Virus record (IMG/VR): IMGVR_UViG_3300032261_000561
Direction: 5' to 3' (one strand)
DNA: 64,000 bases
DNA from: a virus
Shown here: piece by piece, positions 3,357-43,507 of the stretch
Position numbering within the stretch: position 1 is the stretch's first letter
How the letters are laid out: each line of letters starts with the position of its first letter
Program-made: the position numbers and the translations under genes
Notes under the pieces: model-generated
What the model was told of the DNA's origin: nothing
The model's input: only the letters and a program-made list of their open reading frames with translations
The model's database searches: none

Positions 3357-3814
3357 TACCCTGTAACCTTCCGCCTCTCGGCCCCATCGGTGGCCCCCTG
3401 CTCGTCAAGATAGCACGTCAAATCGGGTGTGATGTGGATTCGTACACCCATGGGTTCTCCAATTTCTGCCACCCGTTTACGCACGAGCAAAGTGGTCACC
3501 TGAGCGTCATCGCGCCACACCACGCCCGTCAGTGCATCCAGACATGCTCGGGTGAGCTTATCAATGTCGGGCTTCTTGGTAGCCGGAGGCGTGGGCTTGG
3601 TCTTGGCAGTATTACCGGGTCGGTAAAGCACGAATTCTAGACCAACAGCGAGTGGACCCTCGATTAACTCCATGGGTTCCACCTCTTGATAGGCCGCCAA
3701 CGCAACACGTTCACGCCACGGGCCCAGCTCCTTGTTGTCTTCCCGCATCCCCCAGCGGGTCTTGACCTTCGACCCCTGAGATTGAGGTTTACCCGGGACG
3801 TAGAACGAGAGCAT
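3356..3814 (-). CDS. rusA: RusA-like Holliday junction resolvase
   Basis: FYVPGKPQSQGSK...KKPDIDKLTRACLDALTGVVWRDDAQV; ATG at 3814 overlaps the upstream TGA. Confidence 0.9.
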   Translation of the reverse strand: MLSFYVPGKPQSQGSKVKTRWGMREDNKELGPWRERVALAAYQEVEPMELIEGPLAVGLEFVLYRPGNTAKTKPTPPATKKPDIDKLTRACLDALTGVVWRDDAQVTTLLVRKRVAEIGEPMGVRIHITPDLTCYLDEQGATDGAERRKVTG

Positions 3815-4560
3815 CAACGGGGCCCGTCCGGATGAAGCCAGCACGCGAACCGTACCGGGCAGGTAGTGACCGTAGGACTGTTGGGTGCACAACAATAGAT
3901 CGGCGCACGATTGAGCGCGATAGCCTCACGCACCCGGTCGAACTTCGAGTAGATCTCGGAGAGCAGCGCGTCATTGCGGGCCACCGGGATCTCGCGCATT
4001 CTAAACGGATAGCCGCTCTCCACCATCAGGATGATGCCGGTTTCCAGCCCCTGGCTGTCCAGCTGGATGGACAGCTGCGCCTCCCACTTCGGCAACAGCT
4101 CGGTCTTGGCAAACTTGAAATGGGTGCGGCTCTTGATCTCCACCACGATCGGACCGCGTGTGAGATGGTCGACGATCGCGTCGATGCGGCCGCGCACGTG
4201 GTGCTCCTCGATGGTGAACATCTTCTCGACGTTCTCCGGCTTCACCAGACCGGTGCGCACCAGATGCCGCTGCAGTATCTCGTGCAGGCTGGTGCCCACC
4301 CCCGCCGCCATCTCGCGTTCCAGGCTGAACGGCTCGTCTACGGCGAATTTCTGGGTGTCTGGGTGGAAGAGGTAGTACAGCTGGCGTTCGCCCATCAGCG
4401 GGTGCGTGGAGGGGTGAAAATAGCCATCCCCGCGACCCTCCCACACCCCGCCGTGCAGATCGGCGCCGTCGCGTACGGCGGCCCGCATCTGGTTTTCCAG
4501 CATGGGCAGCACAATCTCCTGATTGGCCAGCCGTTTGAGGAGGTTGTCATAGATGGTCAT
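3814..4560 (-). CDS. Cas4-like / PD-(D/E)XK exonuclease
   Basis: GT.LHE, RGRIDAIVD, VVEIKS, QLSIQ and a C-terminal Cys cluster CC...CPVRFAC. Confidence 0.82.
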   Translation of the reverse strand: MTIYDNLLKRLANQEIVLPMLENQMRAAVRDGADLHGGVWEGRGDGYFHPSTHPLMGERQLYYLFHPDTQKFAVDEPFSLEREMAAGVGTSLHEILQRHLVRTGLVKPENVEKMFTIEEHHVRGRIDAIVDHLTRGPIVVEIKSRTHFKFAKTELLPKWEAQLSIQLDSQGLETGIILMVESGYPFRMREIPVARNDALLSEIYSKFDRVREAIALNRAPIYCCAPNSPTVTTCPVRFACWLHPDGPR

Positions 4561-4910
4561 GGAACTTCCTCCGTTCGCCGCGCCAGGTCGAGCAGTTCCG
4601 CGAAGTCGTTGAGCCTCAGCACAATGTAGTCATCAACTGCACTACCTGTGATAAAGCGAATTGGAATAACGAACCGCTGGCCCAGGTAGTCAGCGCGCTC
4701 ACTCTCGGCCAGCAGAAACGCGTGGTTGAGACTGAACGAGCCTTTCTCGGTGCATTTGCAGTCGGCCAGCATCGGGAATGCGGTCTGTGCCGGGTGCCGG
4801 GTGTCGACGGCGTCCCCGCGTGCGTAGAACTGGTTGCCACTGCCCGGCGTGGAATCTAAGCGCAACAGCTGCTGCACGTAGCGCTCGAACGTCTTCCACA
4901 GAGGTGCCAT
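4557..4910 (-). CDS. Putative Hjc-like (PD-(D/E)XK) Holliday junction resolvase
   Basis: FER...TPGSG...GDAVD...ADCKCT and C-terminal DYIVLRLNDFAELL. Confidence 0.7.
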   Translation of the reverse strand: MAPLWKTFERYVQQLLRLDSTPGSGNQFYARGDAVDTRHPAQTAFPMLADCKCTEKGSFSLNHAFLLAESERADYLGQRFVIPIRFITGSAVDDYIVLRLNDFAELLDLARRTEEVP

Positions 4911-4911
4911 C

Positions 4912-6024
4912 TCATTCCTCCCCAAACACCCCCTGGCGGAACAACTCAGCCACCGGCGCTTCGTCCAGATCGTTGGGATTCTGCACCGGGGCTACCTCGG
5001 ACACCCGGTCGCGCAGCTGCTCGATGATCGCCACCCGCAGCTGCGCCTGCAGCTCGGGATGGGCTTTGATGTGCGCCGAGAACTGATCGGCGCCGCAGAT
5101 CTTCCCGTCAGGTAAAGACGGGTGGTGATACCAGGCGCCCTTGCGGGTGACGATCGACGTCATGGCGCCCAGCCGGGCGATCTCCTCGGCCTGGTCGACA
5201 CCGAAGCCCCACTTCTCGGTGCGCACCGACATAAACCACCACTGGCAGGTGCGGCCCTCGATGCCCCCGGCCTGGTTTTTGACGATTTTCGCCGCCACCG
5301 TACCGCCGACTTTGACGCGCTCGCCGTTGATGTCCTCGAAGACTTCGCCTTTGGCTTTCTTGAGATACACCCGCATCACCGCGTTGTGCTTAGGGGCGTG
5401 CCCGCCGGGCGTGATGATGCGATGAAAACCCGCAACGTCATCGCGAGTCTGGTTGACGGCGTAGGTGCAGCATTGGTACTTGGCGGTGAGATTGGCCATG
5501 ATCGGAGCGAAGCGCGCCATTTGGCGGGCGTTGCCGGTCATCTCGTCTTTCTCGGTGTCCATCGACTTGCGGGTGATCGCGCTGGCGATGGAGTCGAACA
5601 GCACGAAACACACGAAGCCGCTTTTCACCGCCTCTTTGTAGATCTCACAGGCCTGCTCGATATCGTCGGGCTGGGAGTAGATGATGCGCTTGTCCAGGCG
5701 CTCCTCACCCACCAGGGTGGCCAGCCACTCGACGTCCAACTTGTGCTCGGTATCCAAAATCAGCGCGCCGCGCTTGGGCTGAGCGTCGAGGAAGTTGCTC
5801 ATGCCCAGCAGCCCCAGCGTGGTCTTGCCGCATTGCTCGGCGCCGAACACCTCCACCATGCGGTCGGATGGCCAGCCGCCGCAGCCGGTGGCCAGATCCA
5901 GCGAGATGGAGCCGGTCGAATACTTGGGGTAGCGCGGCATCTGCGAGGCCATCATCACCGAGCGCGGGCCGAATTTTTCGGCCATCGCATCGTGGATCTT
6001 CTGCGCCTCCGGCTTGGCCGCCAT
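4912..6024 (-). CDS. recA: RecA-like DNA recombinase
   Basis: STGSISLDLATGCGGWP, Walker A GAEQCGKTT, DTEHKLD, FDSIAS, NQTR, TPGG, KIVKN, KGAWY; start at MAAKPEAQ. Confidence 0.95.
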   Translation of the reverse strand: MAAKPEAQKIHDAMAEKFGPRSVMMASQMPRYPKYSTGSISLDLATGCGGWPSDRMVEVFGAEQCGKTTLGLLGMSNFLDAQPKRGALILDTEHKLDVEWLATLVGEERLDKRIIYSQPDDIEQACEIYKEAVKSGFVCFVLFDSIASAITRKSMDTEKDEMTGNARQMARFAPIMANLTAKYQCCTYAVNQTRDDVAGFHRIITPGGHAPKHNAVMRVYLKKAKGEVFEDINGERVKVGGTVAAKIVKNQAGGIEGRTCQWWFMSVRTEKWGFGVDQAEEIARLGAMTSIVTRKGAWYHHPSLPDGKICGADQFSAHIKAHPELQAQLRVAIIEQLRDRVSEVAPVQNPNDLDEAPVAELFRQGVFGEE

Positions 6025-35416: not shown

Positions 35417-38326
35417 TCATGACGACGTGCTCGCTCCCGCCGGTGCCCCCGACGACGTCGTGAAAGCCCCGGCCACCCAGCCGGTGGAAGTGCTGATCAA
35501 CGGGCGCGCACGGGTGAGCGACCTGGACACTGTGGACTCCTGGGTCGGCGCGATGTAGGCGATGGCCAGATCGGGGGTGAACACCTCCTTGGTGATCGCG
35601 GATTGCCCGAGCGGCAGCCGGAAGTGGAACTGGTCGGCCTGCCCGCCCATGCTCTGCACCTGGGTGATCTTGGCCGCGATGTAGGTCTGCTCGGACGGCC
35701 AGGGGAACACGTAGGGGGTGCCGTCGGGATTGACCGCCGGGGCATTCGCCGGAGTCTTGCCGAACTTGCCGCCCGGGTAATTGTCTGGGCTGTCGATGAT
35801 GTCGTAGGTCTGCCAGGGCCCGTAGTTGGACACCGAGGTGAAAGCCTCGAAGTTCTGCGCTGGCCGGTAGGTCCGCATGGGATCGGGCGCGGGTACCACG
35901 TAGGGGACGGAACGGCTGGCGAACGTGTTGAGGTAGTCGCGCGCGATCTGGTAGCCACTGCGGGGATCCCCGGCGATCTGGGTGACCGTGTCGTAGGTGG
36001 CGTGCGGGTCCTCGGTGGACGCGTAAGACACCGTGGCCAAGATGTCGGCCTCCACCTGGGCCACGTTCACCGGCGCGGTGGGGAACTGCCGCGTGATGAC
36101 GCCCGGGTCACCCGCATAGGCGGCGATCGTCGCGTCGAAAATGGTTGCCGCCCACAGGTCGTCAGTGGTGTTCCCATGGGTGCACAGCAGGTCGTCGGGG
36201 TTAGCGAACTCCCACCACAGGGACTCGGTACCGCTGAGCCGGTTGGCCGAGATGCCGTGGCCGCCGGGATCGGTGCCCTCGGGGAAGATGACGCCCGCCT
36301 CACGCCGGGGGGAGCCGAAAGACACCGCGCCCAGCAGATCCACCCGGCGGTGTTGCATGGCGCCGGTGCGCAGCTGGTCATAGACCGTGGAGGTGACGAT
36401 GGCCCCGATCCCCCGCCCGATCAGCAGGAAGGGCCCGATGTTGCGGTTGATCATGATGATCAGAGCGGAAACGGCCGCGTCAATGCCCTCTTGTAGCGGC
36501 AGCTCGTTCAGCATGGGCCACGGCACGTAGACGTAGCGGATGCGCGAGTCCAGCTTGCCGTCGAACCACGAGGTGGGGGGATTGGCCAAGTAGTCGGTGA
36601 CCTCGTAGCAGGTGACCTGGGTGGTGACCGCAGGCGGGGCCAGCGCCGCCAGGCTGGGGATGGACAGGCTGTTGATGTAGTCGGCGCCGATCTGGATGCA
36701 GTTGCGCGCGTCACCGGGGACCGGGTGGTAGTTGGGGTTCTGGTAGAGCCCGTGCGCACTGTTGGTGACCACGCCGTAGAACAGATCCAGGAAGTTCTGC
36801 AGGAGGATCTCGGCGTTGGTGATGGCGCCGGTGAGCAGCGCGGCCAGCGGGGACAGGATGCCGTTGTAGCTGTTGTAGATCAGCTGGTACACGGCTTCGT
36901 TGTTGGAGCCGGGGACGGTGTCGTGATTAGTGCAGATGAGATCGCCGGGTGCGGCGAACTCCCACCACAGCGGCTCACAGTCCTGCAGCAGCTCCCAGCC
37001 CTGCACGCCGTGCCCGCCCGGGTCTGGGCACATCGGGAAGGTGACGCCGGGCTGGCGCCGTGGGTTGCCGAAGGCCAGGCCAGCCAGCAGGTCTGGGCGC
37101 CGGGCCTGCAGTGAGCCGGTGCGGATCTGGTCATAGACGTCGCTGATGATGGTGGCGCCCTGGTCGTAGCCCACCAGGATGAAGGGGCCCGGGATCGAGT
37201 TGATCGCACCGATCAGGTTGGCCACTCCTTGGGCCACGCTCTGGTTCATCGGGTAGAGGTCAGCCTGGTAGGGCACCGGGACCCACTGGAAGAAGTCGGC
37301 GTTCAGGTTTTGGGAAAACCAGTCGTCGGTGGGCACGCCCAAAGCCACGTTGCTGACCAGGTTGAAGGCTCCCGACAGCTCGAAGACGGTGACTTTCACC
37401 GGCCCGAAAGGGTTGATGGTGCCGTAGGTCACCGAGTCGATCGGGCTGCGGCTACCCCCGCCCACCAGGTAGTAGTATGCATACTCCTGGCTGATGTTGA
37501 ACTGCGCGTACGGCGCCAGTGTGGGATCGCCGGAATACATCCACGTCTCGGTGGGCAGCAGGTCGATGGGCAGCAGATCCGGCGGCGGCAGCTGACTCAT
37601 AATCGGGGTCGGCGTGACGATTTTCTGGACCTCGAAGTAAGTCGAGTCGGCGGCGGCCGCCACCGCGAACACCGGGGTGAGCACCGGAATCCCGTGGACG
37701 TTGACGGTGATGACGATGTCGATGCTCATGAACCGGGAGAGCATGTCGCGCACCAGCCGCATCTCCTCGGGCCCCATGGAATCCTTGTGCGGCTTGATCA
37801 CCAGCTCGTTGCGTGCGCTGGACGGGGAGCGCCCCATGTCTAGGGTGATGCCGAAATTATCGATGTACCTCCATATTTCAAACGTGTCGCAGTCCACCGA
37901 CGACGCGGCCTGCACACACATGCGCACACCCTCGACGGTCGAACCCAGTCCGCAGGCCTTGAAGAAGTCGCGGATGCGCGCCCGGTACCACGCATCCTTG
38001 ACCCTGACTTCGTTCCACTGCGGGGCCGTCAGGGTGTCCCGCGAGGGGTTGTAGGGGTAGGACTCCTCGGGTGCGCGGACCAGGATGGCGGTGTTGCCAA
38101 AGACATAGTCGAGGTCGGTGCCAAAGATCGTCTCCATGGCACCGGCCAGCCGGGCGACGAACACCTCGTTGACCAGTCCGCCCGCCCCGCAGGTGCCGCA
38201 GATGGCGTCGATCAGCTTGTACAGGTTGGTATCCGGCGTGCCGACATAAGCGGTGTCGTCGCAGTGCATCAAGAGCATCTCGGTGCTCTTGGGAGGCATC
38301 CACGGCCAGGGGTTGTTGGTTGGGAT
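35417..38326 (-). CDS. Baseplate wedge-like protein containing two LysB/cutinase-like alpha/beta-hydrolase domains
   Basis: Follows baseplate J; GYDQGA...FGNPRR...GDLIC...AHGLY and GRGIGA...FGSPRR...DDLLC...PHATY; probable ATC start at 38326 (first ATG at 38299). Confidence 0.78.
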   Translation of the reverse strand: MPTNNPWPWMPPKSTEMLLMHCDDTAYVGTPDTNLYKLIDAICGTCGAGGLVNEVFVARLAGAMETIFGTDLDYVFGNTAILVRAPEESYPYNPSRDTLTAPQWNEVRVKDAWYRARIRDFFKACGLGSTVEGVRMCVQAASSVDCDTFEIWRYIDNFGITLDMGRSPSSARNELVIKPHKDSMGPEEMRLVRDMLSRFMSIDIVITVNVHGIPVLTPVFAVAAAADSTYFEVQKIVTPTPIMSQLPPPDLLPIDLLPTETWMYSGDPTLAPYAQFNISQEYAYYYLVGGGSRSPIDSVTYGTINPFGPVKVTVFELSGAFNLVSNVALGVPTDDWFSQNLNADFFQWVPVPYQADLYPMNQSVAQGVANLIGAINSIPGPFILVGYDQGATIISDVYDQIRTGSLQARRPDLLAGLAFGNPRRQPGVTFPMCPDPGGHGVQGWELLQDCEPLWWEFAAPGDLICTNHDTVPGSNNEAVYQLIYNSYNGILSPLAALLTGAITNAEILLQNFLDLFYGVVTNSAHGLYQNPNYHPVPGDARNCIQIGADYINSLSIPSLAALAPPAVTTQVTCYEVTDYLANPPTSWFDGKLDSRIRYVYVPWPMLNELPLQEGIDAAVSALIIMINRNIGPFLLIGRGIGAIVTSTVYDQLRTGAMQHRRVDLLGAVSFGSPRREAGVIFPEGTDPGGHGISANRLSGTESLWWEFANPDDLLCTHGNTTDDLWAATIFDATIAAYAGDPGVITRQFPTAPVNVAQVEADILATVSYASTEDPHATYDTVTQIAGDPRSGYQIARDYLNTFASRSVPYVVPAPDPMRTYRPAQNFEAFTSVSNYGPWQTYDIIDSPDNYPGGKFGKTPANAPAVNPDGTPYVFPWPSEQTYIAAKITQVQSMGGQADQFHFRLPLGQSAITKEVFTPDLAIAYIAPTQESTVSRSLTRARPLISTSTGWVAGAFTTSSGAPAGASTSS

Positions 38327-38335
38327 GGTGTCCTC

Positions 38336-40867
38336 CTACGGGCTCGCTACCCGTGTGATGATGGCGCCCAGGTAGTAGGCCACCTGATTATCGTTGAGCT
38401 TGAAGTCGTCGTCGTACACCGCGATCGGGTCAGGGTCCTCGGAGTTGGCGAACACCCGCACGCCGTGAACATCAGGATTGTCGGTAGTGGTGGTGATTTT
38501 GACGTCGTCCACGCCCAGGATTTGAGTGACCACGGTGCACAGCATGGTGAATTTGATCTGGGCCCCGAACGGACAGGCGGCGACGAAGCTCTGCAGCCGG
38601 GTGGCCAGTGCCGCATTGACCACGGCGGGGGAGTAACTGCGGTTGTATTCGATGGACAGGCAGGGCTGCAGGTAGACGTAGTCGGCTTGATGCACCAGCA
38701 CATCGGTGCACAGCTGTTTGGAGGAGGTCATCACCGAGTCGAGGACCTCGGGCACCTGGTTGTACACGTATTCTAAGGTCAGCTCGGTGCCGGTGGTCGG
38801 GCCGGTGGAATCCCACTCGATCCCCGAGGCCTCTAGGCGCGAGCCCTGCAGCTCTGTGCGGTCGGCCAGCACGTAGTAGTGGGTGCCCATGATGTAAATC
38901 TCGGGACCCACCGTCAAGGTGGGTGGGAAGGTCACCAGCGGCACATTGCCCAGTCGGGTGTAACGGTTGGTGGCCGTCGGATTGCCCGGCGAACCCATCC
39001 GAATGAAGTTGCCGGTGTAGAGCGGGTCGTCGACCAGACTGGAAAGCGTGACGCCGCTGATGATGGTCTGCTCGGTGACACTGTAGGGCGCGATGCCATC
39101 GCAGAAGATGTCGACTTTGTTGGTGATCCCGTTCACCGGGTCGTTGCGGCTGCAGGTGGGGGTGTATTGGAATTCCAGGTCGACGATGTCGTCCTGATTG
39201 ATCACGCCGGTAGCCACCCGGGTGAACACCGGCGAGACGCCGGTGGACAGCATGTAGTCGTCGCCCTCGGTGTAGAACGTCTCGTCTTCCTGGCCCAGGT
39301 TGATGAAACAGCTGGTCATACCGGTGTTGTGGCTCAACAGCCCTTCTGCCACCAAGGTGTTGGTCGAAGTAGACAACGCCACCACATCCTGGACGCCAGC
39401 TTCTTCGACCGATATCACCTTGGCGAAGTTGCTGTTCTTGCCGACGATGCAGCTTCCGTACAGATCGCTCATGAACTTAGGGGCGAGTCGAGCGCTCTTG
39501 AAGATGCCGAAGAAGCGCAACCGCTCATCCATACCACCATGAAGCAAGATCTCCTGGCAGCAAGGGTCGGGTGATAGACCTGTGCTGCGGGTTCGGGCTA
39601 CGGAGTGCTTGAACTTATTCCTGGCCAGCAGGTCCACGATCTTGTCGAAAACCGGGCCGGGGTTCTGCAAGATCGTGACATTGTGCTTGTTGTAACTGGC
39701 CTCGCCGTCAGTAATCCCGGCCATCCAGCCAGCCTCGAAGGATAGATCCTCATCCCAGGAAGGAACGTATCTGATCTGGTCACCAGGCAAGAGATCCTTG
39801 GTTTTGACCCACTGAACATTCTGGGTGTTTCGGATGACACCGCGTCTCTTGCCCGTATGTCCGACACGTCGCCCAGAAACCAGCCACATGTGATCAGCGG
39901 TGGAGGTGACCGTGGTGCCGTTATCCATCGTCACCATAAGGGTGCGAGCAGGACAGATATAAGACTGCGTAACCCGAGACTGACGCCACTTTCTCTTATT
40001 GCCGCGCCCCTCGACAGACTCGTCGAACCCGACGATCAGATCTCCAACCCGAAGAGAGCCCACGGGCACCCAGTCCAGGCCGTCGGTAAGGACTCGTGTC
40101 TCTGGGATGAGGCACCATACGTACTTGACGTCCTGGTCGACCGGCAGCGCTACCGTCGTCGAGGGCGCGGCGATCTGCGTGGTGTAGAGCACGGTGGGAC
40201 CGAAGACAATCACCCGGGTGACCGAGGTGTTTTGCTGGCATAGCGCGATGTACCAGTCGGCGGTCCCGGCCACATTGCGCAGGAAGGTGTCTTTGAAGCG
40301 CTGCCTTAACGCATCGTCGGTCTCGGGGTCGGTGCCGTCGGTCATGGCCTGCAGGTTGGTGACCGCCGAAGATCCGATCGCGGTGGACAGATTGGTGACC
40401 GCGCCCGGCGGCACGTTGCCCGAGACACCGACCGTGGTGCAGGTGACCGGGACGTCCACCGAGTAGTCACCGGCCGGGAGCACCACCGACTGGTTGGCCG
40501 CGTAGTACAGCTGCACACTGGCCCCGGCCAGACCGGCGGTGGTGTAGAAGGTGGTGCCCTGCTGGATGGTGTAGTCGGTGGTGGAGGCCACCGTCAGGGT
40601 GACCCGCACGGTGCCCTGCGCATAGGTGCCCTGCAGCCTGCCATAACCGAACAGCCCGACGAACTGTTCCAGCTCCATCCCGGCCTTGGTGTCGACGTCC
40701 AGCAGCGAGCCCAGCAGATAGGTGTCGATGGAGGCGGCCGCGATCTGCTCGGCGCAGGCGTCGATGATCTTGCGCTCCGGCGTACCAATGGCACACGACA
40801 GCGTCGGCATGGTCAGCGCCAGCTGGGCCAGAATCTGCTGGCTGATCTGGTCAGGTGTACCGGGCAT
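38336..40867 (-). CDS. Baseplate J-like protein, intein-containing
   Basis: AQGTVRVT, VTCTTVGVSGNVPPGAVT, TDGTDPETDDALRQRF...AGT: baseplate J signature. Confidence 0.9.
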   Translation of the reverse strand: MPGTPDQISQQILAQLALTMPTLSCAIGTPERKIIDACAEQIAAASIDTYLLGSLLDVDTKAGMELEQFVGLFGYGRLQGTYAQGTVRVTLTVASTTDYTIQQGTTFYTTAGLAGASVQLYYAANQSVVLPAGDYSVDVPVTCTTVGVSGNVPPGAVTNLSTAIGSSAVTNLQAMTDGTDPETDDALRQRFKDTFLRNVAGTADWYIALCQQNTSVTRVIVFGPTVLYTTQIAAPSTTVALPVDQDVKYVWCLIPETRVLTDGLDWVPVGSLRVGDLIVGFDESVEGRGNKRKWRQSRVTQSYICPARTLMVTMDNGTTVTSTADHMWLVSGRRVGHTGKRRGVIRNTQNVQWVKTKDLLPGDQIRYVPSWDEDLSFEAGWMAGITDGEASYNKHNVTILQNPGPVFDKIVDLLARNKFKHSVARTRSTGLSPDPCCQEILLHGGMDERLRFFGIFKSARLAPKFMSDLYGSCIVGKNSNFAKVISVEEAGVQDVVALSTSTNTLVAEGLLSHNTGMTSCFINLGQEDETFYTEGDDYMLSTGVSPVFTRVATGVINQDDIVDLEFQYTPTCSRNDPVNGITNKVDIFCDGIAPYSVTEQTIISGVTLSSLVDDPLYTGNFIRMGSPGNPTATNRYTRLGNVPLVTFPPTLTVGPEIYIMGTHYYVLADRTELQGSRLEASGIEWDSTGPTTGTELTLEYVYNQVPEVLDSVMTSSKQLCTDVLVHQADYVYLQPCLSIEYNRSYSPAVVNAALATRLQSFVAACPFGAQIKFTMLCTVVTQILGVDDVKITTTTDNPDVHGVRVFANSEDPDPIAVYDDDFKLNDNQVAYYLGAIITRVASP
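39326..40114 (-). mobile_element. Intein (263 aa) with a LAGLIDADG-type endonuclease remnant
   Basis: Block A CLIPETRVLT, block B TSTADHMWLV, GWMAGITDGEAS, block F/G VVALSTSTNTLVAEGLLSHN followed by Thr; lower GC than flanks. Confidence 0.93.
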
Positions 40868-40879
40868 GGACGGCGCCCC

Positions 40880-41296
40880 TTAGACGCTTGACGTTGTGCT
40901 GGTGGTTGCCGTGGCCCCGCTGCCGGTAGTGACCGACACCGCCACGCTGACGGTGTCATACGTGATGCCTACATCAACGGCGGTTAGTGCGTTGAGCAGC
41001 TCCTCGAAGCTGAAAATCTGTGGGTTGTTCTGTAAGGCCAGATTCTGAATGGCCTGATAATTGCCCAGCACCCGGTCGACTTCGCCCTGGACCCGCGACT
41101 GCGTGGTCAAATCGATCACCCCGCCGATGAAATTCGGCAGCACCGAACCGTAGCGGGGATGAAATCGGTCGACTCCCAGCCGCTCGGTCAACCACAGCGA
41201 CATGTCCTGTTCGAGTTTCTCGATGCCCGAGACGATGGCCAGGCTGGATCCCCGTTGCACCAGGTCCCCATTTTGAAGTGCGAGGCTGAAGGTCAA
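40880..41296 (-). CDS. Baseplate wedge / gp25-like protein
   Basis: GDL...VSG.EKL.Q...L..R.G...FHPRYGS.L; immediately upstream of baseplate J. Confidence 0.75.
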   Translation of the reverse strand: MTFSLALQNGDLVQRGSSLAIVSGIEKLEQDMSLWLTERLGVDRFHPRYGSVLPNFIGGVIDLTTQSRVQGEVDRVLGNYQAIQNLALQNNPQIFSFEELLNALTAVDVGITYDTVSVAVSVTTGSGATATTSTTSSV

Positions 41297-41359
41297 GGCG
41301 AAGCCTCCTCTCTCCCTTTAGGTGCGGAAATGCCCCCGACGACAGGGCCGGGCAGAGGG

Positions 41360-41446
41360 TTACGCGACTCCCGTCACGTCTGCGACCAGTCCGTTGCCCG
41401 CGATGTTGGTGGGGTTGACCGGATTGAGTCCGAGTTGGGCTTCCAT
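41360..41446 (-). pseudogene. 28-aa remnant paralogue of the upstream gene (MEAQLGLNPVN...GVA)
   Basis: Same first 11 aa and same last 3 aa as 41446..42264. Confidence 0.6.
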
Positions 41447-42264
41447 CAAGCCACCCCGCTCCAACTGCGCAGGCGCAGAATGAGGTTGTATCCCGCGAGG
41501 TTGCAGTAGTAGACGCCGATCTGAGTGGGAGTTAAATACGCCGTGCGAGCTTCTTGGTGATAGGTGTGCCAATCAATCCCGTTGATCGACCACTCGAAGT
41601 AGTGAGTGGTAGTGCCGTCGTATCGGTACCGCCACCACTGAGGCATAGCCCCAATCCAGTACAACGGTGGGAACCAGGTTTCCATCGCCGCGCTGTAAGT
41701 GCTCGTATTCGCCCATTGATCGCCTGTAACGGACTGCGACAGGGCATACCAGGGCGCGGCGAACGAAGTGGCGTTATATAGGCCTGGCCCAAATGTTTCC
41801 AGCTTCGTTCCGTCCGAGATCACCAATCCGCAGCGCCACCAGTTACCCGCTGAAGGAAGAACAGTGGTATTAGCAAGATCGACATAGAAATTGGTCACTA
41901 GGGAGAACGCGCCCACTGGGTATGCGCGGTAAACGTATCCAATGCTCATACTGCGACTAGGCGCAGTGAGCACCATCCCGTCTTTATCCGAAACCCATGT
42001 CGCTGTACCCATATTGACCGATGTCCAGCCGGTCGTCGGAGGGTCGGCCATCGGCGGGCCGCCGACCCCGCCAAGGCGGATCTTGACCCAGCTGGTGCCG
42101 TTGTCCTGGTAGAGCGCATCGCAATCGGTGCAGTAGTAGACCCGGTTGGGAATCCCCGCCGCCGGTCGTGAGGCGTAGGTTCCCGAAAGGCTCAATCCTT
42201 CGGCCCAACCGACGGTGGCCTGATCGGTCAGGTTGACCGGGTTGAGTCCGAGCTGCGCTTCCAT
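41446..42264 (-). CDS. Minor tail / receptor-binding-like protein with a lectin-like beta-sandwich
   Basis: GTYASRPAAG...YYCTD...YQDNGTSW N-module; aromatic-rich, low-GC C-terminal domain (FEWSINGIDW). Confidence 0.65.
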   Translation of the reverse strand: MEAQLGLNPVNLTDQATVGWAEGLSLSGTYASRPAAGIPNRVYYCTDCDALYQDNGTSWVKIRLGGVGGPPMADPPTTGWTSVNMGTATWVSDKDGMVLTAPSRSMSIGYVYRAYPVGAFSLVTNFYVDLANTTVLPSAGNWWRCGLVISDGTKLETFGPGLYNATSFAAPWYALSQSVTGDQWANTSTYSAAMETWFPPLYWIGAMPQWWRYRYDGTTTHYFEWSINGIDWHTYHQEARTAYLTPTQIGVYYCNLAGYNLILRLRSWSGVA

Positions 42265-42271
42265 GCTGGTC

Positions 42272-43507
42272 CTACGTCTTGATCAGGTAGTTGAGGACGA
42301 TGGTCGGCTGGACAACATTGTGCGTTCCACCGCCGCCCGCGTAGATCGCCTGGTACTGGCCGTTGAAGTTAGAGCCACCAGCGAGACCCGACGCTGATAT
42401 AAACCCATTCAAAAAGGAACTGTGGTGGTGCGACGGCATCTCTCCGTATGACAAGGTGTGAACTTGTTCGCCGCCAGCAGCGCCGAGGGTGGCACCTGCT
42501 GCGCCAAAAGGTGAACCGCCCACCCATAGCTGAAATTCTGTCGCCGCCACATAGTTGGTACCGGGAGGGGTGACTTGGAGGTAGCGCCAGGTTTGGGCAA
42601 CCGGCAACCGGACCAGACCGTTGGTGGAGCCGGTTTGGCCGTAGCCCGGAAGGGTCATCACGGTCGTCCAGGCGGTGCCGTTGTTGCTGCCTTGTAGCAA
42701 AAAGCTGTCGAGGTATTGCGGTCCGAAACCGCCAGGGATATTGGTCAGGTAATCCCAGCCCAGGACAACGGAGTCGATGTATTGCGACGAGCCGAGGTCG
42801 GCGCGGATGTAGCTACCCGCCGCCGAAGTGGTGGCAGCTTGCTTGACGGTCGCACCGGAGGCGCTACCATCGTTCATTCCGGCATAGTTGGCCGCTGTCG
42901 TCCCTGGATACACCGATGATTGCGAGTAGACCGCGTTGGTGGCTTGTATTCCCTGAGTCAGTCGGGACGCGGCGGTGCCGCCCATGTTGTCTTTGCCCGC
43001 CACTGCGCGCCCCCGCATGTCAGGGACGTTGAAGGTGGTGTTGCCGTCGCCGTAACCGTGCGGCGAGTAAACCAGAGAATGGGTGCCGCTCTGGCTGCCC
43101 GAAGTGGCGATTGTGACACCGGACACCGCGTTGGCGAAACTGGTCGCGATGCTGAACGTGTTGGCGTCGATGTAGATGACGTAATACGTTGTGCCAGCTG
43201 TGATTCCGGTAGGCAATGCCCCTGTGGTGCTGAAGATAACCGGATCGCCTGTAACCAAACCATGACCGGTGAGAGTGACCACAGCCGGGGTAGCAATCGT
43301 GATGATGGGGTTACCCAGCGTCGGGTTGAGCGTGGTGAACAGGTTGGCGTAGGTGATCCGCGAGACCGCCTGCCCGTAGCACAGCAGCCAGCCAGCGGGC
43401 ACCACCAATGATGATCCGGCGAACGGCATCACGGCTCCGGTGAAGATCCCCACCGTCATGGCGTCGGCGGGCCGAGAAGGAGCGGTGCCTAGTTGTGGTT
43501 GTGCCAT
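42272..43507 (-). CDS. Tail-collar-domain fibre protein with inserted modules
   Basis: GAVMPFAG...PAGWLLCYGQAVSRITYANLF, GDGNTTFNVPDMRGR, GGEQVHTL..EMPSHHH, HNVVQPTIVLNYLIK. Confidence 0.88.
   Translation of the reverse strand: MAQPQLGTAPSRPADAMTVGIFTGAVMPFAGSSLVVPAGWLLCYGQAVSRITYANLFTTLNPTLGNPIITIATPAVVTLTGHGLVTGDPVIFSTTGALPTGITAGTTYYVIYIDANTFSIATSFANAVSGVTIATSGSQSGTHSLVYSPHGYGDGNTTFNVPDMRGRAVAGKDNMGGTAASRLTQGIQATNAVYSQSSVYPGTTAANYAGMNDGSASGATVKQAATTSAAGSYIRADLGSSQYIDSVVLGWDYLTNIPGGFGPQYLDSFLLQGSNNGTAWTTVMTLPGYGQTGSTNGLVRLPVAQTWRYLQVTPPGTNYVAATEFQLWVGGSPFGAAGATLGAAGGEQVHTLSYGEMPSHHHSSFLNGFISASGLAGGSNFNGQYQAIYAGGGGTHNVVQPTIVLNYLIKT

Follow-up and report, generated by a model that had tools for sequence, protein, structure and literature searches.

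A predicted class 1 intein with a single LAGLIDADG core in the baseplate J gene of an uncultured mycobacteriophage-like virus

Why does the gene for a tail baseplate protein encode 843 residues in one virus, when close relatives encode the same protein in 580? The question arises from a 64,000-nucleotide window, meaning the whole stretch of DNA that was analysed, which is part of the 125,723-bp IMG/VR virus record IMGVR_UViG_3300032261_000561 (84% complete by CheckV). Within it, the list of open reading frames (ORFs) and their translation place a baseplate J precursor gene of 843 codons plus stop at 38336-40867 on the minus strand, which carries all parts of the gene described below. A preliminary description had proposed that residues 252-514 are a 263-residue in-frame insert that starts CLIPETRVLT after ...KYVW, stops at ...GLLSHN before Thr515, carries a block B motif (TADH) and one LAGLIDADG-like helix, FEAGWMAGITDGEAS, and is lower in G+C content (GC) than the rest of the gene. 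All of these elements were found. The insert maps exactly to 39326-40114, translation gives the same two ends, block B lies at 39890-39901 and the helix at 39695-39739, and the GC of the insert is 56.7%, against 65.6% in the N-extein and 60.9% in the C-extein (70% against 88% and 85% at third codon positions). We conclude, with a probability of about 0.87, that this stretch is a true intein of class 1, a selfish mobile element that separates the protein's N-terminal Baseplate_J core from its C-terminal part.

Orthologous genes lack the insert with codon precision, which marks it as a true insertion and not as a domain of the baseplate J family. Alignment with intein-free homologues, a check put forward in the preliminary description, showed that the segment is not retained as an integral domain: the baseplate J proteins of Phrappuccino (gp85) and Gizmo (gp145) lack exactly the 263 residues. 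Four IMG/VR contigs (L006-L009) carry 580-residue intein-free alleles that are 92% identical in protein and about 88-92% identical in nucleotide sequence. At the DNA level, these alleles follow the window as far as 40115 and pick up again at 39322, leaving the intein and the +1 codon as the only unmatched part. That codon is GAG (Glu) in these alleles and ACC (Thr515, 39323-39325) in the window, where it would supply the C-extein nucleophile. The alignments delimit an N-extein of residues 1-251 (40115-40867) that ends in a conserved DVKYVW, with W251 invariant among 53 baseplate J homologues, and a C-extein of residues 515-843 (38339-39325) that takes a high-confidence fold in the precursor model. 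Removal of the insert would leave the 580-residue product that had been predicted earlier, the same length as the intein-free alleles.

Fold and sequence motifs point to the nature of the insert. An AlphaFold2 model built on a 38-sequence alignment has a predicted local distance difference test score (pLDDT) of 91.8, and in it the N-terminal 120 residues (39755-40114) and the C-terminal 41 (intein residues 223-263, 39326-39448, with blocks F and G and the ending TLVAEGLLSHN) form a HINT domain. VIA-align superposes the model (residues 1..263) on NpuDnaB, gp41-1, Mtu RecA, Mxe GyrA and Hedgehog over 122-141 residues, with Z scores of 16-18 and a root-mean-square deviation (rmsd) of 1.6-2.7 Å. 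A HINT fold is thus predicted, and the Foldseek matches (best E 5e-10) are endonuclease-containing VMA inteins and PI-SceI. The class 1 residue set is complete, comprising C1 (codon 40112-40114), block B T72-A-D-H75, H262-N263 (39326-39331) and Thr+1. C1, H262 and N263 never vary; H75 is strictly conserved in alignment A6 (52) and almost strictly in A3, which has 38 relatives. The insert also matches the intein region of the NF038136 profile (E 7e-12). Fold, residue set, relatives and precise absence from homologues therefore agree with the earlier identification of the insert as an intein, and the element is probably splicing-competent. The model of the full precursor is moderate, with a pLDDT of 74 and junctions below 50.

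Further support comes from the family to which the intein belongs. Its closest characterised relative is the Pham3880-g intein of the cluster C1 terminase-like protein ScottMcG gp245. It is 40% identical over all 263 residues (E 1e-50), and its splicing has been demonstrated with an MBP-intein-GFP reporter (Kelley et al. 2016, PMC5050341). A scan of IMG/VR recovered at least 274 viral loci of this family. The best 80 of the 274 are 239-286 residues long, all full length, and represent at least 52 junction types, with family members residing in DNA polymerase A, terminases, portals, Mu-F-like capsid proteins, DnaE, RecA, RNR and other proteins. The window intein is therefore a member of a known actinophage intein family, in a host protein and at a site that are new relative to the lists of Kelley et al. 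(2016) and Gosselin et al. (2025, preprint 10.1101/2025.01.02.630785).

Residues at the family's splice junctions are not evenly distributed. Of the 52 junction types (L013-L092), 38 have an aromatic extein residue at -1 (Tyr in 31, Phe in 4 and Trp in 3), and the +1 residue is Cys in 25, Ser in 16 and Thr in 11. This bias may reflect a splicing-site or target preference.

Has this position in baseplate J been invaded more than once? A search for inteins at the same insertion site, also suggested in the preliminary description, found six other metagenomic baseplate J clusters (P0004, P0005, P0006, P0008, P0009 and P0042; 796-866 residues) with a related intein, 38-65% identical, in exactly the same position. 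The residue that follows the invariant Trp differs sharply between the two kinds of allele in the 53 homologues. It is Thr in six and Ser in one of the seven intein-containing alleles, while the 46 intein-free alleles have Pro (33), Ala (5), Glu (2), Gln (2), Ser (2), Asp (1) or His (1). A +1 Thr or Ser is thus present in 7/7 alleles with the intein and in 2/46 without it (Fisher's exact p = 2e-7), so that the nucleophile travels with the intein, and this distribution is evidence that splicing is selected for.

A maximum-likelihood tree places six of the baseplate J inteins, including that of the window, in one clade (support 100/95). The P0042 intein, from an 845-residue protein of a JGI metagenome with a KYAW/S site, is instead nested in a terminase-type clade (SSP[FY]/.../TK; starred branches). 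On this tree the baseplate J label must change no fewer than two times, and a single change fits 0 of 200 bootstrap trees. This indicates that the site would have undergone at least two independent invasions or an intein-by-intein replacement. That the KY[VA]W site in baseplate J was entered on two occasions could follow from the bias of the family towards an aromatic residue at -1. A different and larger intein (Hint_2 plus LAGLIDADG_3), with Cys at +1, follows ...LELEQF in two other metagenomic baseplate J proteins (P0077, 967 residues, and P0159, 943 residues), which brings the intein insertion sites known in baseplate J to at least two.

These comparisons also bear on whether the element splices at all. 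Hedgehog and BIL structures stand among the top fold matches, as would suit a permanent inserted domain or an autoproteolytic domain of the BIL or Hedgehog type. Such a non-splicing element is nevertheless highly improbable, given the full canonical residue set (Cys1, TxxH, HN and +1 Thr), the perfect co-occurrence of the +1 nucleophile with the insert, the near-identical alleles that lack the insert to the codon and the one family member proven to splice.

The history of the locus bears the marks of horizontal exchange. The P0004 intein has a GC of 55.3%, against 67.5% and 65.7% in its exteins, an offset of ~10 GC points like that of the window intein. The P0004 gene lies at reverse-complement positions 3369-5903 of a 24,094-bp contig from ERZ724521 (L093) and has a GTG start. 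Upstream of the window intein, L007:1-1867 is 100% identical to window positions 40802-42669 (1,867 nucleotides), a match that ends 65 nucleotides into the baseplate J gene. Past position 40802, identity falls to 90-96% in the N-extein and then to ~87% downstream, and there is therefore a recombination boundary at the start of the intein-bearing gene. The boundary fits exchange around a homing element, although ordinary mosaicism gives the same pattern.

Whether the intein is still mobile depends on its endonuclease. The domain occupies intein residues 121-222 (39449-39754), and DSSP assignment of the model resolves these ~100 residues into one helix-strand-strand-helix-strand-strand-helix-helix unit. 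The domain is thus as short as the preliminary description had claimed, a single core. Residues 120-222 match I-DmoI (Z 9.0), I-MsoI (Z 8.9) and I-CreI (Z 8.3), and also WhiA. The model contains no second LAGLIDADG core and PF14528 gives no match, which places the domain outside the two-motif pseudo-dimeric class; it shares with the I-CreI type a single core with a nearly invariant acidic residue, E138, at the end of the motif helix. Across ~90 diverse family members there is little or no variation at D136-G-E138, Q150 and R209.

The preliminary description had suggested that the endonuclease may be degenerate. This is unlikely, because the endonuclease part is conserved across the family and its ratio of nonsynonymous (dN) to synonymous (dS) substitution rates, omega, is low. 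Only allelic pairs were used for dN/dS, as distant family members are saturated and uninformative; where dS was usable, these pairs gave the endonuclease part an omega of 0.04-0.13, the same as for the splicing part. L093, the nearest allele with DNA and the sole other baseplate J intein allele compared at the DNA level, differs from the window by a dN of 0.29 in the endonuclease part and 0.28 in the HINT N-terminal lobe, with synonymous sites saturated. Throughout the baseplate J clade, the endonuclease and splicing parts are similarly conserved between close alleles, and the endonuclease diverges somewhat more at larger distances. Judged by these rates, the endonuclease domain is under purifying selection, and its single core is a stable architecture of the family as a whole, not a product of local decay.

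An endonuclease encoded in an alternative frame or antisense within the intein, as in Gosselin et al. (2025), was also considered and rejected; five overlapping ORFs gave no Pfam match.

Several observations weigh against the reading of the insert as a mobile class 1 intein. The general splicing profiles score below their cut-offs (PF14890, Intein_splicing, 16.9 bits against 35.8; TIGR01445, 16.2 bits against 24.5), and the endonuclease segment alone has no Pfam match. The intein family is a divergent one, to which members are assigned by fold, motifs and relatives and not by curated profiles. The endonuclease has a single LAGLIDADG core in place of the usual two-motif domain, and the window's sole deviation from the nearly invariant columns, G139A, falls beside the acidic residue and is common to its two closest relatives. 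Palindromic symmetry was sought at the junction, from which the true cut site may differ: the empty baseplate J sites show 4/11 symmetric pairs against a background of 3.0. Over the 53 junctions of the family, best scores average 5.96 against 5.77, which is no enrichment; the one rise in symmetry, at offset -2, comes from Tyr codons, whose TA is self-complementary. No near-identical intein was found in a divergent extein as proof of recent homing, and the intein is known from metagenomic contig sequence alone.

Some of these points would suit an intein that splices and is no longer mobile, its LAGLIDADG core being a structural or DNA-binding remnant, as in WhiA, that persists by vertical descent and general recombination. 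The single core, the presence of WhiA-type non-nuclease domains among the structural matches, the replacement of the last Gly of the motif by Ala in the window's subclade and the lack of symmetry at both the baseplate J site and the family junctions are all in line with such a history, and the published work on Pham3880-g (PMC5050341) concerns splicing. We regard loss of mobility as possible but somewhat doubtful. E138, Q150 and R209 have been kept in a diverse set of relatives, the omega of the endonuclease is as low as that of the splicing domain, and the occupation of at least 52 junctions in many host proteins, together with at least two invasions of the baseplate J site, is hard to explain without active homing.

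As a selfish class 1 intein, the insert would act at two levels. The gene would be translated as an 843-residue precursor in which, as the motifs and the family suggest, Cys1 would attack the W251-C252 bond, the N-extein would be handed to Thr515, Asn514 would cyclise and the exteins would be ligated; a 580-residue baseplate J protein, joined at W-T, and the excised 29-kDa intein would result. Splicing would be required, because the precursor is unlikely to assemble. At the level of DNA, there is about an even chance that the LAGLIDADG domain is still a homing nuclease on the intein-free baseplate J alleles of co-infecting phages, in which case homing would copy the intein together with its +1 Thr codon into the intein-free allele. 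The absence of palindromic target symmetry argues against a simple I-CreI-like homodimer. A more speculative reading, which we hold less likely than not, is that this is a compact viral intein family with a single LAGLIDADG half-domain under strong purifying selection that would cut in an unusual manner, either as an intein or precursor dimer on non-palindromic sites or with the help of the HINT domain. The literature that we searched, which was covered incompletely, yielded no description of single-motif LAGLIDADG inteins, and it is likewise a tentative suggestion that the architecture is new for inteins.

Does obligatory splicing amount to regulation? The preliminary description had raised the idea of a conditional checkpoint. 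On such a view, a redox, temperature or assembly cue would regulate splicing and so gate or time tail assembly. Thr+1 inteins tend to be slower, precursor is visible for the Pham3880-g intein (PMC5050341), other inteins have documented conditional splicing and a precursor that probably cannot assemble makes splicing obligatory, all of which are compatible with such a role. We consider the checkpoint improbable, however. No regulation-specific feature was found in the intein or its gene, 46 of the 53 sampled baseplate J orthologues are intein-free, including alleles 92% identical to that of the window, and a patchy distribution, foreign GC and more than one invasion are what a parasite would show. 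The observations match a selfish homing element, and the checkpoint is not supported.

The host of the intein had been called atypical, and this was borne out in part. Baseplate J is absent from the 13 actinophage intein hosts of Kelley et al. (2016) and from the 19 of Gosselin et al. (2025), and no baseplate J intein occurs among the isolates of the phage collection. We also found no description of baseplate J inteins in the literature, our coverage of which was incomplete. Set against this, structural proteins are already known as hosts, the published actinophage examples including portal, minor capsid and tape measure proteins and a 'baseplate wedge domain protein' (Pinkcreek gp135), and the six further occupied clusters make baseplate J less exceptional as a host. 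Pinkcreek gp135 was considered as a baseplate J intein host and rejected, as the baseplate J protein of Pinkcreek is gp131, which is intein-free.

The identity of the host protein itself is clear. Its N-terminal part (residues 65-224) matches Baseplate_J PF04865 with 92.9 bits (cut-off 21.1; E 2.7e-26), the protein matches phrog_6 'baseplate wedge subunit' (E 3e-67), and TRI-2 and Phi92 gp145 are among the solved Baseplate J/triplex proteins that the family profile picks up. The baseplate module of the record is collinear with that of Mycobacterium phage Phrappuccino (gp84-87, 57-58% amino acid identity) and with those of cluster C phages, for example Gizmo gp144-149. By family profile above cut-off and position in the baseplate module, the host is a Baseplate J / gp47 / T4 gp6-type wedge protein, and the virus is an uncultured, mycobacteriophage-like one.

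The neighbourhood of baseplate J has further features. Several cluster C mycobacteriophages (Gizmo, HyRo and Shifa) carry a free-standing HNH endonuclease gene directly downstream of an intein-free baseplate J gene, in Gizmo as gp146 (L002:4737-5072). These adjacent genes suggest that the baseplate J locus attracts homing nucleases in general. Directly downstream of baseplate J in the window, a gene for a 960-residue protein (35417-38299, minus strand) is ~510 residues longer than its homologues, Phrappuccino gp87 and Gizmo gp149, and contains two tandem repeats resembling esterase or LysB-like domains, in which GYDQGA and GRGIGA replace the G-x-S-x-G elbow.

In the record as a whole, one copy of the intein family was found. 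Queries with the intein itself, PF14890 and PF14528 found no further inteins in the 125.7 kb, a weak negative because the two Pfam scans missed the real intein as well. The DnaE (1155 residues) and DnaB-like helicase (414 residues) encoded in the window have ordinary, uninterrupted domain layouts, in accord with the earlier statement that both are free of inteins.

With baseplate J, invaded at two distinct sites, another protein joins the phage structural proteins known to host inteins, and a terminase-type intein lineage is seen to be able to move into a tail gene. For annotation, an 843-residue 'baseplate J' ORF that would in fact encode a 580-residue protein is a case to note, and such inteins are also useful for mapping actinophage gene flow. 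The single-domain endonuclease of the family, under selection, is a possible compact scaffold for biochemistry. The intein is otherwise an ordinary selfish element that calls for no new biological principle, and an assembly checkpoint stays speculation.

Comparison with known systems places the window intein among several types of element. The homodimeric, single-motif enzymes I-CreI, I-MsoI and I-CvuI share with its core the conserved acidic residue that ends the motif helix, and one subunit of each superposes on residues 120-222 (Z 8.3-8.9, rmsd ~2.6 Å, 86-87 residues). These enzymes are free-standing and intron-encoded with pseudo-palindromic targets, whereas the window core is nested in a HINT domain and has no detectable target symmetry. 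PI-SceI, PI-PfuI and the TliVMA/PhoVMA inteins, the top Foldseek matches, resemble the window intein in having the LAGLIDADG domain inserted at the usual place, between blocks B and F of the HINT domain. They carry two LAGLIDADG motifs (blocks C and E) in a pseudo-dimeric monomer of ~200 residues or more, in contrast to the one ~100-residue core found here. The intein of Pinkcreek gp135 (Gosselin et al. 2025) is likewise of class 1 with a LAGLIDADG domain, and its host gene is a structural one from a mycobacteriophage myovirus, also in the baseplate module. The protein interrupted there is a different one, a homologue of Gizmo gp149, whose gene lies downstream of baseplate J. Of all these elements, the ScottMcG gp245 intein is the nearest in sequence, with ~269 residues, a single LAGLIDADG core, class 1 residues and a similar end (...LLTHN, compared with TLVAEGLLSHN). 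The two differ in host and site, terminase-like ...SSPY/C...HN/SK as opposed to baseplate J ...KYVW/C...HN/TG, and the tree sets the window intein apart from the ScottMcG gp245 type, in a well-supported clade of baseplate J inteins.

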